64,000 nt of DNA from Myxococcota bacterium (GTDB lineage: Bacteria; Myxococcota_A; UBA9042; PHBI01; JAWLBL01): assembly GCA_041687695.1 (NCBI GenBank), contig JAWLBL010000015.1, forward strand, positions 3,627 through 67,626, written 5' to 3'. Below, piece after piece: positions 8,114 through 49,935 of this stretch. Position numbers and translations under genes: made by a program. Every line of letters starts with the position of its first letter. The first letter of the stretch is position 1. The notes below the pieces were generated by a model, which ran no database searches, was not told the origin of the DNA, and was given only the letters and a program-made list of their open reading frames with translations.

Positions 8114-8719
8114 GGGCCCCGCTCTGCGTGTCGCCGTCCGTGACCCACGGGGGTCGCTGCCCTCACGAGAGACTCATCCTCGTGGGCCTCGAAAGTAAAC
8201 TCATCCGTGAACGGTAGGACGTGAGCGCCGGCGACTCCTCGACCGTGAACGGCCCGCGCTGTCTCACATGGGGGACGCACCAGGTCCTGGTGGAGTACGG
8301 CGCGGAACGTACGTCGTCACCTTCCGGGGGCTCGCAAGAAGTGCAGATGGCCGACGCGGGACAATCGCGACCGACGACGAGATGCCCGCGCACCATAGGC
8401 GGCCGATGATGGAGCGGGCCGACCGTATCAGCTCTGGTGCCGAAGTCCAGAACCTCTCTGGGAATGGACGTCCAGAGTCCTCGAGCACCGAGGGGCCCCG
8501 GCACCGAGGACGCCCGTCCAGGCCACCGTGTCCGCAGGGACGTTGTCTCGCACAGCCCGTCGGCTGCGCGTGATGGTCGCAGGAGGGGGGTGACTGGGCG
8601 CGTGTAGGGCGTGCGTCGCGCGACGCAAGAGATTGACTCGCCTGAGGCGACACCGTACAACAGCCGACATCGTGGTGATTTGGTCCGCTTGCCGCCACGT
8701 TAAACAAGGAGCTAAAGAG

Positions 8720-9873
8720 ATGGGTGAGATGTCGGTGCATCCCGAGCTGAGGGATGAGGCGTTGGTGCGTCGCGAGGTGGCGCGCGGCTTGGGTGAGCTG
8801 CTGGCGCGGTGGGGCGGCTCGGACGAGGCGCTGGCGCGGCGGTTGGGCTTCGAGGACGTGCCGCGCGGGGCGTTCCTGGTCGGTGCGTGGTCGCGGGGCG
8901 ACGAGGACCCGGACGAGGCGCAGGTCGCGCGGTTGTGCGACGCGGTGGGGGCCGAGGCGGCGCCCTGGGCGGAGGTGGTCCGGCGGCGACGGGCGGCGCG
9001 GCGGGCGCTGGAGGTCCGCTGGGACGAGCTGTCGAAGGCCGACGCGCGGGCGGAGCGCGCCGAATGGGAGAGCTTCTGGGGGTGCGTGCCGGAGTTGGCA
9101 CGCCTGGGGGGCGCGGCGCTGCGGCAGGCTGGGGTGTGGACGCTGCGGGGGCCCTGGCTGCGCGTCCTGGCGCGGTGGACGCATCTGCACCATGTCGCGC
9201 TGGGGCCGGTGGCCGAGGCGTGGGCGCGGGGTGAGCTGGTGGCGCCGTGCTCGCGCTGCCGGGGCGAGCTGTTCGTGACGGCGCTGAGGTGGGGCGCGGT
9301 CGAGGGGCGCTGCGTCTGCGACTCGGGGGTGGTGGTCGCGGGGGCGCACAGGACCTCCGGCGCGGTGGGGGCGGCCCTGCGGGCGTGTCTCGAGCAGACG
9401 GGGGCGCTGGGGGCCGAGCGTCTGGAGGACGCCGGCGTCTGGTGGGAGGCGGCGGCGGCGCTGGGGATGGACGTGCCGCCAGCGCGCATCGAGGACGGCC
9501 GCGGGCGGCTGCTGGGGGTTGGGAGTACGGGGCGCAGCGGCTCCTGCGGCCGGACGGGGCGGCGGTGGTGCTGCGGCGCGGTGAGGCGGTGCCGGGGTGG
9601 GATCGGGCGGGGAGGCTGGGGCGTCGGCCGGTGACGCTGTCGCTGAGCGGCGACGGGCGGAGGCTGGGGCGGGCGTTGACGGGGGCGACGCTGCACCGGG
9701 GGCAGGCGCTGGTGCTGGAGACGGGAGAGGGCGTGTGGTGCGGGTTCCCGGGGCACCTGCGGGACCCGCGGGACCGGGTGCGGGCGCGGTTCGAGCGGCG
9801 GGTGCCGGCGCGGGTGATGGCGTGGTTGGCCGGGGCGGGAGCGGGGGCGAGCGAAGGTGGGCCGGGGGACTGA
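8720..9873 (+). pseudogene. Hypothetical protein (HTH-like N-terminus, CxxC motif), probably frameshifted at a G5 run near 9514-9518
   Basis: AAGGAG RBS and ATG at 8720; the frame becomes R/G/C/W-rich after ...GRGRLLG, while the -1 frame reads GWEYGAQRLLRPDG...PGD* to 9873 with GC3-rich codons. Confidence 0.5.
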
Positions 9874-45568: not shown

Positions 45569-46780
45569 TCAGTCGCCGCCGCGGGTGCCGTTGAGGGCGA
45601 TGACGCGCAGGGCGACCTCCATCAGATCGCCGTCGCGGTTGATCTTGACCGTGACCTGGTCGCCCGGGCGGAAGCGGTCGAGGGCGTTGTAGAGGTCGTC
45701 GAAGGACTTCACCTGGTACTGGTCGACGCCGACGATGACGTCGCCCAGCACCACGCCGCGGCGGGTCTGCTGCAGGCCCTTGAGGCCCGCGCGGGCGGCG
45801 GGGGTGCCCTCGACCACCTGGGACACGATGACGCCCTCGACGCCGGCGCGGCGCGCGATGGAGTCGTCGACCACCTCGATGCCGATGCCGACGTGCACCG
45901 GCTGGCCGGTCTTGAGGATCTGCGGCACGACGCGCGCGACCGTCTTCCAGGGCACGGCGAAGCCGATGCCGGCGTAGCCGCCGCTGGCCGAGTAGATCAT
46001 CGTGTTCATGCCGATGAGCTGCCCGCGCGAGTCGATGAGCGGCCCGCCCGAGTTGCCCGGGTTGACGGCCGCGTCGGTCTGGATCATGTCGCGGATGGTC
46101 ACGCCGCCCACGCCCATGACCTCTCGCCCGAGCGCCGAGACCACGCCGGTGGTCAGCGTGTGGTCGAGGCCGAACGGGTTGCCGATGGCGATGGCCTTCT
46201 GGCCGACCTCGACCTCGTAGCCGGCGGGCGGGCGGCGGATGGGCGTCAGCTTGTCGGCCGGCGCGTCGATGCGCAGGACGGCGATGTCTTTGCGCGGGTC
46301 GACGCCGACCACCTCGGCCGGCCAGGTGCTGCGGTCGTGGAGCGTGACCGTCAGGCGCGGCGCGCGGCCCTGCGACTGGATGACGTGGAAGTTGGTGACG
46401 ATGTGACCCTGGGCGTCCCAGATGAAGCCAGAGCCGGCGCCGGCGGGGACCTCGGTGGCGCGCATCGAGAAGTGGTCGCGCACGACCTGGGTCTGGGTGA
46501 CGAAGACCGTGGCGGGGGCCGCGGCGCGGAAGACGTCGATGGTGTTGCGCTCGTCGAGCTGGGTGGCGGCGGCCGGCAGCGGGTCGACCAGCGGCGTCTG
46601 GCGGGCGGGCGGCGGGTCGGCCGGCTGGGCGTGGGCCAGCGGGGCCTCGACCGGGATGGGCGCGGTCGTCGGCGGGCTGGAGCCGGGGAGCCAGGTGACG
46701 GCCGTGACGCCGCCGAGGGCGGCGAGGGCGAAGAGGAAGGGCTTGGTCGCGACGCGGAGGCGGGGGGAGGGGGTGCTCAT
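45569..46780 (-). CDS. HtrA/DegP-family serine protease (trypsin-like + PDZ)
   Basis: GAGSGFIWD, TNFHV, DIAVL, IGNPFGLD, IQTDAAVNPGNSGGPL, C-terminal PDZ. Confidence 0.95.
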   Translation of the reverse strand: MSTPSPRLRVATKPFLFALAALGGVTAVTWLPGSSPPTTAPIPVEAPLAHAQPADPPPARQTPLVDPLPAAATQLDERNTIDVFRAAAPATVFVTQTQVVRDHFSMRATEVPAGAGSGFIWDAQGHIVTNFHVIQSQGRAPRLTVTLHDRSTWPAEVVGVDPRKDIAVLRIDAPADKLTPIRRPPAGYEVEVGQKAIAIGNPFGLDHTLTTGVVSALGREVMGVGGVTIRDMIQTDAAVNPGNSGGPLIDSRGQLIGMNTMIYSASGGYAGIGFAVPWKTVARVVPQILKTGQPVHVGIGIEVVDDSIARRAGVEGVIVSQVVEGTPAARAGLKGLQQTRRGVVLGDVIVGVDQYQVKSFDDLYNALDRFRPGDQVTVKINRDGDLMEVALRVIALNGTRGGD

Positions 46781-46914
46781 GCTGCTCCCTGACGTCTTGG
46801 GGTCGAACGCATTCAGCGATGGGCGCCGGTAGACATAGGCGCCGTTCGAACGCGTTCCACCCCTGATCGCGTCCCGCCTGGGCGCGCGCCGCCCCCCGAA
46901 CTTCGGCCGGGGTC

Positions 46915-46943
46915 TTGAACCCCGCGAGATCCGTCGCTAATCT
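46915..46943 (+). promoter_or_regulatory. Sigma70-type promoter driving the putative ncRNA
   Basis: TTGAAC-N17-TAATCT. Confidence 0.65.
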
Positions 46944-46949
46944 GGGCCT

Positions 46950-47269
46950 CGCACTCAGCCGGAGCGCCTAACCAGCGCTCCTTGCACGGCTGGCCCGGTG
47001 GACCGTCGACGAGCGGGCGGCCACGCGGGGGCGGGACTGGGTCTCGCGATGCGCAACACGCTGGCAAAAGGAGGTGATCCCTTGAAGAGTTCGACTTGGG
47101 TGATGTGTGAGGTGGTGGCCTCCTAGGCCAGCCTGCGTTGAGGGACGCCAGCGCGCGTCCACAGACAAGGGTGAGCGCCTGGAGCCCAGGCACCACCGAG
47201 CCCCGAGGTCCCGCCCCGTCACCGGGTGGGCGATTCCGGAATGGGTCGCAGAAGCCTCGGGGTTTTTTT
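46950..47269 (+). ncRNA. Putative ~320-nt structured RNA with internal extended SD and short ORF (Ms1/6S-like candidate)
   Basis: Upstream promoter; stems CAGCCG/CGGCTG, GAGCGC/GCGCTC, GCCCG/CGGGC, GGGGCGGGAC/GTCCCGCCCC, CGCTGGC/GCCAGCG, CCCCGAGG/CCTCGGGG followed by T7. Confidence 0.62.
47082..47126 (+). CDS. Possible 14-aa peptide MKSSTWVMCEVVAS
   Basis: TTG start 7 nt after the GGAGG of AAAAGGAGGTGATCC; TAG at 47124-47126. Confidence 0.4.
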   Translation: MKSSTWVMCEVVAS

Positions 47270-47287
47270 GTGCCCGCCGTCCGGCCC

Positions 47288-47776
47288 TCAGCGGCGGACG
47301 AGCGAGCGAGGGACGGGCGAGGCCTCGTCAACGGGCTGGTCCGAGGGCGCGGTGGGGATCAGCAGCTCGGCGCCGACCGGCGGTCCCGCGACGCAGGTGT
47401 AGCGGACGGTGCGCGAGCCCACCAGGTTGGTCCCCAGGGCGACCGCCTGCGCGCAGGCCAGCTCGCCGAGGCTGTCGTCGATGTCGTCGCACAGGAGCAG
47501 CCCGCCGGCGATGCCGACCGCCGTGAGGCCGAGCGAGATGGCGACGTCGATGGCGCTCGACTCGCTCTCGACGTCGGCGATGCCGTACTGGCACTCCTCT
47601 CCGGACACGCCGTCGAGCTTGACCAGGCCGTACAGCAAGAACCACTGCCGATCGGTGTAGCTCTCGCCACGCGGCACGTCGCTGGGGACTTGGATGGTGG
47701 TCGAGTAACAGCCGGAGGCGGCGGCCATCAGGCAAGCCGCGGCGCCGGCCGCGATGGAGCGGATCGCGGTACGCAT
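47288..47776 (-). CDS. Bor/Iss-like lipoprotein
   Basis: Lipobox ASGC; YSTTI...QWFLLYGLV...EC.YGIADVES...RTVRYTC. Confidence 0.7.
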   Translation of the reverse strand: MRTAIRSIAAGAAACLMAAASGCYSTTIQVPSDVPRGESYTDRQWFLLYGLVKLDGVSGEECQYGIADVESESSAIDVAISLGLTAVGIAGGLLLCDDIDDSLGELACAQAVALGTNLVGSRTVRYTCVAGPPVGAELLIPTAPSDQPVDEASPVPRSLVRR

Positions 47777-47888
47777 GGGACCTCGATGGTGCGTTGCGGG
47801 AGTGGGTTGGGAGAGGCCCAACGCTAACACGCAACGCGAGACTCCCAAGGCTCCGGTCGCAACGCCGGGGCGGCGCCCCGACCGGGGC

Positions 47889-48719
47889 TCAGAAGCGGCC
47901 CATCACCCCGATCGAGGGCGCGACGACCGTGGCGCTGAAGGCGAGGTCGCGGCTGGTGCCCTCGAAGACGTCGAGGGTGACGTCGGCGGACAGGCGGGCG
48001 ACCGTCAGCTCGGCCGCGAGCCAGACCCAGCGAAAGCCGATGGCCCCGCCGACCTGCAGGCCGAGGTAGCGGCTGGAGCCGCCGAAGTTCACGAGCGTCA
48101 AGGTTTCGCTGCCGGTGTCGATGCTGGTGGCGTAGTCGAAGCCGGTCATCTGCAGCTTGCCGCCGAACCAGAGGTGGCCGATGTCGTTGCTCCAGCCGAA
48201 GAGCAGCGGGACGTCCAGCTCGCCGCGGGTGGGATCGCCGATCTTCACGACGTCGAACAGCTCGGCCACGGCGCCGGCGGTGTAGGCCGACAGCCCGAGG
48301 CCGATGGAGGCGTCGATGCCGTGGTGCTCGTCGCGCAGGAACTGCCAGCGGGCGCCGACGCGGATGGCGCTGCTGGCCAGGCGCAGGCCCACCTCGTAGC
48401 GGCCGTTCCAGCCGTAGGCGCCCACCAGCTGGCCGCCCACGCCGGGCAGGCCGACCAGCACCTTGGCCGCGGCGTCGTACAGGGCGGCGAGGTCGCCCTC
48501 GTCGAGGGTGCCGCCCTGCCCGACCTCGGTGCCGAGGCGTCCGCCCAGCTCGACCGCGTCGGCGATGACGCCGGGCGCGACGCTGCCGTCGAGGCCGACG
48601 CCGACGTGGACGCCGTCGTGGACGCTGGCGGGCTGCATGGTGCTGAGCACGGGGGCGCAGCCGGCCGCGGCGAGGACGAGGGCCAGCGCGGGAGCGACGG
48701 AGGGGGGCAGACGCGTCAT
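47889..48719 (-). CDS. Outer-membrane beta-barrel-like lipoprotein
   Basis: Lipobox AAGC; amphipathic strands; C-terminal Phe. Confidence 0.72.
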   Translation of the reverse strand: MTRLPPSVAPALALVLAAAGCAPVLSTMQPASVHDGVHVGVGLDGSVAPGVIADAVELGGRLGTEVGQGGTLDEGDLAALYDAAAKVLVGLPGVGGQLVGAYGWNGRYEVGLRLASSAIRVGARWQFLRDEHHGIDASIGLGLSAYTAGAVAELFDVVKIGDPTRGELDVPLLFGWSNDIGHLWFGGKLQMTGFDYATSIDTGSETLTLVNFGGSSRYLGLQVGGAIGFRWVWLAAELTVARLSADVTLDVFEGTSRDLAFSATVVAPSIGVMGRF

Positions 48720-48936
48720 GCGGTGAATCTAGGACAGGCCGCGGCCGATGGGGAGGGGATTCGGGCCGGGGGCGTTCGGCCGGGGCGCGCCCGGAAGCTC
48801 CGCGCTCGAAGCCGACTTCATTACAGTGAACCCGTTGGACCACGCCTGAGCCCTCCGCCCGCAGATCCGGGCTCGCTCGCCGGCCGTCCACACCCCCTCC
48901 GCCTTCCCCCCGCCACCTCTGTCCCGAGGGTGCCGT

Positions 48937-49197
48937 ATGCCCGTGACCCCCACCACGGCCCAGATCCGCGAGCAGGTGACGTCCATCCTGGCCGACATGA
49001 TCCCCGGCGCGCCCGTGTCGTTCGTCGACCCCGACTCGCCACTCAGCGACGAGCTGGAGCTCGAGGCCGCCGATCTGGCCAACCTGCTGGTCGGCCTGCG
49101 CCACCGGCTCGGCGTGCACATCCCGGACGCGGCCATCGGCGAGACGACCTCGCTCAACACCATCGTCCGCTTCCTGCAGCGCAAGCTCCAGGCCTGA
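48937..49197 (+). CDS. Acyl carrier protein-like protein lacking the phosphopantetheine Ser
   Basis: VDPDSPLSDELELEAADLANLLVGLRHRLGVHIPD...TSLNTIVRFL; ACP pattern with EAA where DSx is expected. Confidence 0.75.
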   Translation: MPVTPTTAQIREQVTSILADMIPGAPVSFVDPDSPLSDELELEAADLANLLVGLRHRLGVHIPDAAIGETTSLNTIVRFLQRKLQA

Positions 49198-49224
49198 GCC
49201 GACCCGGCGCGGTCGCCGGTCCTA

Positions 49225-49406
49225 GAGCCTGCATTTCTCACCAGCTCCTACTGCGCCCGGGGCTAGCACCGCACCTCCGCGGCGTTCTCGCTCCGGCCGG
49301 CTCGACGTACCGTCAAGTACGCCTTCACCGTCCTCCACTCCGAGCACCGCGGATCTGCGGCACTATCCCTCGGGCTCGCTACGGAGCTGGTGAGAAATGC
49401 AGGCTC
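49225..49406. mobile_element. 182-bp MITE with perfect 24-bp terminal inverted repeats
   Basis: GAGCCTGCATTTCTCACCAGCTCC (49225-49248) / GGAGCTGGTGAGAAATGCAGGCTC (49383-49406); interior also self-complementary; no transposase. Confidence 0.8.
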
Positions 49407-49476
49407 GGGCGATTGTCCTTTCGGGACGAGGGCTTAACGTCATTGGACGGGGACGTCCAGACGACAGGAGCCCAGC

Positions 49477-49935
49477 ATGTACCCGAGCGAGGTCCGGCGA
49501 CAGGTCCTGAGAGAGCACCAAGGGCTGCGTGCCCAGCTGGAGCGCATCGAGGCGCTGGCCGACGACCTGCGGCGCGGAGAGCGCGACGCGGGCGACCGCC
49601 GCGGCCTGCGCGAGCGGGTCGAGCAGCTGGCGCGGGCGGTCGAGGCGCACGAGCGGCTCGAGGACGAGCTGCTGGGGCCCGCGCTCGAGGAGTCGACCAA
49701 CTGGCGCAAGGTGTGCATCGCGGACATGCACCGCTACCACGAGACGCAGCGGCGTGAGGTCGCGACGACGCTGCAGGTCCTGCGGAACCCCGAGGCGGAC
49801 GCGGCGAGGCTGGCGCGGGCGGTCGGGCGCCTGGTGCGCGTGCTGCGGGCCGACCTCGAGTGCGAGGAGCGGGATCTGCTGGCGCCGGCGCTGCTGCGCG
49901 ACGATCCGCTGATGACGGACAACGTCAGCGGCTGA
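49477..49935 (+). CDS. Hemerythrin-like (HHE) protein
   Basis: AGGAG RBS; LREHQGLR, AHERLEDELL, HETQR, LECEERDLL. Confidence 0.8.
   Translation: MYPSEVRRQVLREHQGLRAQLERIEALADDLRRGERDAGDRRGLRERVEQLARAVEAHERLEDELLGPALEESTNWRKVCIADMHRYHETQRREVATTLQVLRNPEADAARLARAVGRLVRVLRADLECEERDLLAPALLRDDPLMTDNVSG

Follow-up and report, generated by a model that had tools for sequence, protein, structure and literature searches.

A predicted small RNA with an extended Shine–Dalgarno sequence and a mini-ORF in a Myxococcota bacterium, probably a remote relative of Ms_IGR-5 and akin to the rre small mRNAs

The window, by which we mean the whole 64,000-nucleotide stretch of Myxococcota DNA that was analysed, contains a gap of ~500 nt between two minus-strand genes. 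The divergent left neighbour (45569–46780) encodes an HtrA-like protease with Trypsin_2 and PDZ domains, for which an Atlas look-up returned mixed phyla, and the right neighbour (47288–47848) is a convergent open reading frame (ORF). This ORF and two others on its side, 47824–49119 (−) and 47754–49757 (+), overlap one another, and no Pfam family was matched by any of the three at E 0.001. Alignment and folding suggest that the gap holds an independent, structured small RNA (sRNA) of ~320 nt on the plus strand, with predicted ends, and that an extended Shine–Dalgarno (SD) sequence followed by a mini-ORF lies in its 5′ part (Table 1). The TTG of the predicted promoter and its −10-like CTA(A/T/C) block align in eight relatives, with T37 and T38 invariant. 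A scan of 46600–47500 for consensus promoters and terminators found none; the promoter was therefore called from its conservation alone. The terminator escapes such a simple scan because its loop is branched, and was called from folding.

Metatranscriptomes of two studies contain two short contigs, 95–99% identical to the locus, that cover 46985–47164 and 46968–47128. Both lie within the predicted unit and link its 5′ domain with the ORF; they indicate presence in RNA libraries, and cannot give transcript ends or strand. The contig on 46985–47164 (run X3) carries 18-nt loose ends that are reverse complements of each other, probably an artefact of library preparation or assembly. In two further metatranscriptome runs (X1 and X2), 0.40–0.43 of the index words were found and no contig was placed on the locus.

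Table 1. Predicted elements of the small RNA locus, in window coordinates
Feature	Position	Strand	Description
Predicted promoter	46914..46943	+	−35 CTTGAA (TTG 46915–46917), 17-nt spacer, −10 TAATCT (46938–46943)
Predicted transcription start	~46949–46953	+	
Predicted sRNA	~46950–47269	+	~320 nt
Clade-specific 5′ domain	46955..47047	+	~115 nt; from alignment, RNAalifold and single-sequence folds
5′-domain hairpin	46961–46967/46975–46981	+	Conserved loop CUAACCA (46968–46974; C(U/C)AACCA in relatives)
5′-domain second helix	around 46994–47029	+	
5′-domain further hairpin	47031–47047	+	GCGGGAC/GUCUCGC
Extended Shine–Dalgarno AAAGGAGGUGAUCC	47067..47080	+	14-nt complement of the 16S 3′ tail; (near-)invariant in all relatives
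Mini-ORF MKSSTWVMCEVVAS	47082..47126	+	TTG start, 14 codons, TAG stop at 47124–47126
Second SD-like motif GUGAGGUGG	47107..47115	+	Conserved in relatives; −15 kcal/mol with the 16S tail
Long-range helix, 5′ strand GGUGGUG	47111..47117	+	Overlaps the second SD-like motif
Internal anti-SD-like element GCCUCCU	47118..47124	+	Can cage the SD in the single-sequence minimum-free-energy fold
Long-range helix, 3′ strand CACCACC	47191..47197	+	Directly 5′ of the terminator; RNAalifold consensus
Predicted branched terminator	47198..47269	+	Outer stem 47198–47209/47254–47265; inner hairpins 47211–47229 and 47230–47249; U7 47263–47269

As read from the sequence, the extended SD is AAAGGAGGTGATCC at 47067–47080, with an AAAA starting at 47066, a GGAGG core at 47070–47074 and a spacer of 7 nt (TGATCCC) between the core and the TTG at 47082–47084. 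The mini-ORF reads TTG AAG AGT TCG ACT TGG GTG ATG TGT GAG GTG GTG GCC TCC TAG. In the genome (7,972,863 bases, both strands, GC 73%), the 14-mer and its two 13-mers are each found once; base composition predicts ~0.01 occurrences of the 14-mer. The only other 12-mer match, AGGAGGTGATCC on contig C24, has none of the architecture around it. The 16S rRNA gene is absent from the genome's own 63-contig assembly, though this is 99% complete by marker genes, and the rRNA operons are probably unassembled. The 16S rRNA of two other members of the order ends in ...CTGGATCACCTCCTTTA, and the 14-nt complementarity is therefore valid for the clade. The predicted duplex between the 14-mer and the 16S tail has −25.7 kcal/mol, as against −9.5 kcal/mol for the bare GGAGG. 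The preliminary description of this DNA had proposed a complement of the 16S tail at normal spacing before a TTG-started ORF of 14 codons, which is borne out by the coordinates, by the uniqueness of the 14-mer in the genome and by the 16S rRNA of the relatives.

To place the locus among known RNAs, we compared it with Rfam. The model RF02471 (Ms_IGR-5, ‘Actinobacteria sRNA’) matches 47058–47271 (+) over its entire length (model positions 1–184 of 184) with 23.1 bits, about half of the gathering threshold of 45 bits, which is thus not reached; E is 0.0037 in a permissive scan of 701 nt and 0.0099 genome-wide. In the order, of which 18 genomes were scanned, 3 further genomes have weak matches of 24–28 bits at their homologous locus. 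A BLAST search with the 391-nt unit found parts of it in further relatives, of which G001, G007, G009, G010, G011, G029 and G046 were kept; short matches in G003, G014, G025 and G046 (contig C206) were dropped since they do not have the family motif. In addition, the pattern GGAGGTGRTC-N20-45-GTGAGGTGG, searched with one genome per species, yielded at least 120 loci (L018–L137). This pattern fixes both motifs, and their invariance in L018–L137 is therefore by construction; the relatives found by BLAST or covariance model are the independent test, and in these GTGAGGTGGT is invariant. By record title, the pattern loci listed are mostly from Actinomycetota. Others carry the labels Acidobacteriota (Terriglobia, Blastocatellia, Pyrinomonadaceae, Bryobacterales), Myxococcota, Thermodesulfobacteriota, Planctomycetota, Rokubacteriota and Heliobacteriaceae, as deposited for metagenome-assembled genomes (MAGs). 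When 20 pattern loci were scanned against Rfam, 12 matched RF02471: the actinobacterial ones at 61.8–175.8 bits, except for one at 41.8; two loci from Blastocatellia at 49.6 and 41.0; and three other loci outside Actinomycetota at 31.9–34.7 (34.7, 33.2 and 31.9). Judged by these model scores, the window locus stands at the extreme of a graded series that links it to the seed family.

Within the window's class, 11 of 107 genomes show the full architecture in a strict pattern search, a lower bound because diverged motifs escape the strict pattern; a control with the reversed pattern gave 1 match. Five of the 16 pattern matches in the class (G004, G017, G058, G087 and the second one in G007) were dropped because the ORF architecture is not present. 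The mini-ORF is kept in all 11 loci.

The end of the mini-ORF takes part in a second set of conserved features. Its GAGGUGG-containing motif is itself SD-like; a second ORF behind it was considered and rejected, as no canonical start codon stands at SD spacing. An RNAalifold consensus of eight relatives pairs this region with the segment directly before the terminator (columns 285–295/365–374), and the pair at 291/368 is GC in three, CG in two and UA in one. Compensatory pairs also occur across phyla (GGUGGUCGCC/GGCGACCGCC, GGUGGUUAC/GUAACCACC, GGUGGUCAUC/GGUGACCACC, GGUGGCUGUCCG/CGGACAGUCACC and GGUGGCUACGC/CCGUAGCCACC). A contiguous helix of at least 10 bp forms with the member's own downstream region in 55 of 112 cases and with that of another member in 176 of 2,240, where cross pairings were limited to members whose variable part differs at three or more positions. 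At a threshold of at least 8 bp the contrast is weak (own 90/112, cross 1,400/2,240) because GGUGGCUG is common to most members.

The long-range helix is missing from the single-sequence minimum-free-energy (MFE) fold of the window RNA, which has −167.0 kcal/mol (z = −2.8 against shuffles), and forcing the helix gives −160.1 kcal/mol, a cost of ~7 kcal/mol. In the MFE fold, AGGAGGU (47069–47075) is paired with the GCCUCCU at the ORF end, and GCUGGC/GCCAGC pair outside. The CCUCC is found in most, not all, relatives of the clade and is lacking in the actinobacterial versions. Neighbouring segments are used by the two folds, which may alternate with each other or coexist as a pseudoknot. Upstream, the 5′ domain covaries, with RNAalifold pairs 126–129/137–140 and 156–161/187–193 changing on both sides. 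This domain is absent in Actinomycetota and Acidobacteriota, in which a conserved ACAC and the SD follow the promoter immediately; in these loci (from L018–L137) a −35/−10 pair lies directly upstream, and ACAC precedes the SD by 5–8 nt.

Ms_IGR-5 is described as expressed as an sRNA in Streptomyces lividans (PMC8079986) and S. avermitilis (PMC8780764). In Mycobacterium smegmatis, where it goes by the name IGR-5 or ncMSMEG15794c (PMC10454040), a preprint presents it as a validated, uncharacterized sRNA that is NAD-capped and starts with A (10.1101/2021.12.14.472595), and the ACAC start fits this description. The window RNA shares with Ms_IGR-5 the collinear full-length match to the model; a long complement of the 16S tail, which in Ms_IGR-5 is located close to or directly at the 5′ end; a mini-ORF that ends in xEV(A/V)xx, with an invariant GUGAGGUGG and a stop five codons past the GAG; and an ORF end that pairs with a pre-terminator segment, followed by the terminator. 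This long-range pairing was derived here from the family members and is missing from the structure that Rfam draws for RF02471. By contrast, the host of the window RNA is not an actinobacterium, and the window RNA has the extra structured 5′ domain, the CCUCC at the ORF end, an SD-to-start spacing of 7 nt instead of 10–12 nt and a small hairpin, CCUGG..CCAGG, in place of the segment AAUCC..CAG. The window's subtype of the RNA also occurs in MAGs labelled Myxococcota, Thermodesulfobacteriota, Planctomycetota and Rokubacteriota.

A similar arrangement has been described in alphaproteobacteria. In the study by Hahn et al. 2016 (PMC5711450), the Bradyrhizobium RNA rreB is described as a small mRNA of 165 nt that is complementary to the 16S tail over 17 nt and carries a GTG-started small ORF (sORF) of 14 codons; it binds tightly to, and co-sediments with, 30S subunits, and is translated weakly owing to its long SD and GTG start. 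The same report states that a GUG-to-UAG start mutant was still ribosome-bound and that its half-life rose from 10 to 37 min, that 20-fold over-expression had no effect on growth, and that the RNA is far rarer than ribosomes. It places analogues (rreR and others) in four alphaproteobacterial orders and terms their function elusive. As far as the published description goes, the window RNA resembles rreB and rreR as a stand-alone small transcript with an SD extended over the whole free 16S tail, with this SD partly buried in a hairpin, and with a peptide that is not conserved between clades; with rreB it shares an sORF of 14 codons behind a weak, non-ATG start. The definition of rre RNAs also names an own promoter and terminator and an sORF of ~14–18 codons with a non-ATG start, all of which are found or, for the ends, predicted here. 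However, it asks for a perfect complement of at least 16 nt reaching the first base of the start codon, whereas the complement in the window RNA is 14 nt long and is separated from the TTG by one base (C at 47081). In two relatives, G010 and G029, AAAGGAGGTGATCCAG-TG gives a 16-nt complement to the 16S rRNA of same-order genomes. The window RNA further differs from rreB and rreR in its TTG start and in being about twice as long. Moreover, 30S binding, weak translation and start-dependent decay were shown experimentally for rreB only. Searches of article main text found no literature linking rre with Ms_IGR-5, and none on the Ms_IGR-5 mini-ORF or on the family outside these two groups. Taken together, we consider it probable that the locus is a divergent, remote relative of Ms_IGR-5, of the same kind as the rre small mRNAs and working like them. 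That Ms_IGR-5, rre and the Acidobacteriota and Myxococcota-, Planctomycetota- and Rokubacteriota-like versions form one ancient family acting on idle or newly made 30S subunits, either by capping and protecting the 16S tail or by test-driving the subunit, with the ORF as release ramp and timer, is a more speculative extension that we regard as doubtful.

We then asked whether the reading frame is maintained in the family. A start was scored as an ATG, GTG or TTG located 6–14 nt past the GGAGG, in frame with the conserved GAG and open to the stop. Of 98 distinct family sequences, which come from at least five phyla, 97 have such a start, and the other two frames gave 0/98 and 3/98. The distance from the SD to the GAG falls into all three mod-3 classes (52/28/18), and the start codon thus shifts so as to hold the frame. 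The stop codon is TAG in 82, TGA in 9 and TAA in 7 of the 98 sequences, and it lies exactly five codons past the GAG in 105 of the 120 pattern loci listed. On the evidence of these comparisons, the frame is under selection. The preliminary description had named homologues with an SD-like motif and neither start nor frame as the outcome that speaks against translation; we found the opposite.

A conserved frame could mean a conserved product. It had been proposed that the locus encodes a functional micropeptide, MKSSTWVMCEVVAS, highly expressed through its maximal SD and possibly carrying a small-residue C-terminal degron, with the RNA as its mRNA. Consistent with this idea, start, frame and stop are all conserved, several peptides of the window's class are alike (x-YL-T/S-V-x-GEVV-T/A-S), and the RreB and RreR peptides are described as conserved inside their own clades (Hahn et al., PMC5711450). 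However, the N-terminal two thirds of the class peptides differ freely (MKSSTWVMC in the window; MTTLYLTAMG, MILSLTVTR and MSISKPVNG in others), and the window peptide has only the last five or six residues (...EVV-x-S) in common with them. Across phyla only xEV(A/V) persists. Its EVV or EVA is encoded by GAGGUGG(U/C), which is itself conserved as RNA, and the codon before the GAG is NGT, in which bases 2 and 3 are conserved and the amino acid (R, C, G or S) is not. The ORF length ranges from 11 to 20 codons among the 98 distinct sequences. The last two residues vary between S, G, T, L, R, A and P, so that there is no common C-terminus, and the degron idea was rejected on this ground; nor does the encoding of the conserved residues by RNA-constrained bases lend it support. 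For the rre RNAs, the published account adds that synthetic RreB and RreR are unstructured, that their over-expression has no phenotype and that an over-long SD reduces translation instead of boosting it (PMC5711450). A literature text search with peptide fragments returned no match, and in two translation supplements for M. tuberculosis (PMC9094748 and PMC13096801), a species that may lack the RNA, CEVAA, WTCEV, TCEVA and GTGAGGTGGCTG were found in unrelated ORFs only, a result with no bearing on translation. We conclude that the frame is held while peptide and last residues vary, that a functional micropeptide is quite unlikely, and that the peptide is most likely a by-product.

The opposite view is that the RNA is non-coding, with SD-like parts that act as RNA only and an incidental ORF. 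The RNA could be a 5′ stabilizer, bound by 30S subunits against exonucleases, or a sponge or seed for RNAs that bear CCUCC. STAB-SD elements offer a comparison for the former role, and the position of the SD, 5–8 nt from the ACAC start in Actinomycetota and Acidobacteriota, resembles that of such a stabilizer. In the window RNA, however, the SD lies ~118 nt from the predicted 5′ end, which argues against a terminal stabilizer here. RNA pairing can account for all conserved codons, and the rreB start-codon mutant is reported to be ribosome-bound and more stable (PMC5711450). Still, an incidental ORF is difficult to reconcile with in-frame starts in all but one of 98 sequences despite SD-to-GAG shifts through three phases, or with a stop at a fixed place for which all three stop codons are used, and we consider the non-coding reading unlikely. 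A third possibility is that leader peptide and terminator form a cis-acting transcription attenuator for a gene downstream. Classical attenuators have such a layout, with an intrinsic terminator behind a short ORF, and in the Bryobacterales locus L061 an rpmE-like gene does follow on the same strand. In the window, though, the next gene (47288–47848) is on the opposite strand, there is no conserved anti-terminator alternative, and the ORF has no run of regulatory codons. All-against-all BLAST of the flanking ORFs at 114 loci found lineage-specific neighbours only; in 10 loci the upstream ORF is class IV aminotransferase-like, and 7 loci have an ABC ATPase. Because flanking genes vary by lineage, the idea of a cis-regulator was rejected, and attenuation appears highly improbable. 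More generally, short ORFs are known from dual-function sRNAs and from leader-peptide sensors such as attenuator leaders and arrest peptides. As in these systems, translation of a short ORF would alter the surrounding RNA fold in the window RNA, but a cis-regulated gene, a conserved peptide, regulatory codons and a conserved trans seed are all lacking, and the conserved parts all concern the ribosome itself.

The reading that we favour, and consider rather likely, is that the RNA is a docking module for 30S subunits that uses its mini-ORF as an exit ramp and is remodelled by translation. A free 30S subunit would dock through base pairing of its entire 3′ tail to the RNA. Since this pairing is far stronger than that of an ordinary SD, escape into elongation would be slow. 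The start and the in-frame stop would then serve as the ramp, permitting a short, harmless round of translation in which the subunit is not trapped and the ribosome does not run off at the 3′ end. Passage of the ribosome would unzip the closing helix and, in this clade, the cage formed by the SD and CCUCC, and the remodelled RNA would probably be open to decay. The reported half-life of the rreB start mutant fits such translation-triggered decay. Counted from the GG of GAGG, the GAGGUGG lies 8 nt before the last sense codon; thus, at termination it would occupy the place of an SD for a P site on the last codons. The minimum ORF of 11 codons would correspond to about one ribosome footprint from start to stop. 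The amount and fold of the RNA would in this way reflect or influence the pool of idle 30S subunits. For the cell, the RNA might serve to cap the tails of idle 30S subunits, to gauge the free ones or to some other end; that rreB is far rarer than ribosomes and harmless when over-expressed argues against simple sequestration of ribosomes. The preliminary description had also raised the possibility of a ribosome trap or sensor, with translation remodelling the RNA around it, and this idea fits the position of the ORF end in a covarying long-range helix, the caging of the SD by GCCUCCU and the experiments on rreB.

We know of no described mechanism for an RNA-based handle on the free 30S pool. 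Across at least five phyla, soil and water bacteria preserve an RNA that pairs with the entire free 16S tail and whose tiny reading frame is maintained while its peptide is not. To this family the window adds a divergent member beyond the two published lineages, a clade-specific 5′ domain and a covarying helix that connects the last part of the mini-ORF with the terminator and makes the link between translation and fold concrete and testable. If it is true that the family acts on the 30S subunit, it would represent a new layer of ribosome homeostasis; otherwise, it would be a clean case in which conservation of a micro-ORF need not imply a functional peptide.

Three minor observations were made along the way. 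At the gathering level, the sole Rfam match in the window lies elsewhere than the locus: a SAM-II riboswitch (SAM_alpha, RF00521) at 8662–8736 (+), which scores 54.9 bits, above its gathering score. A scan for tRNA and tmRNA found none. By eye, from their translations, an ORF on the same strand ~60 nt past the terminator in L061 (a Bryobacterales MAG) is rpmE-like (ribosomal protein L31), and an ORF downstream of the RNA in L023 (Micromonospora) is RNase Z-like.
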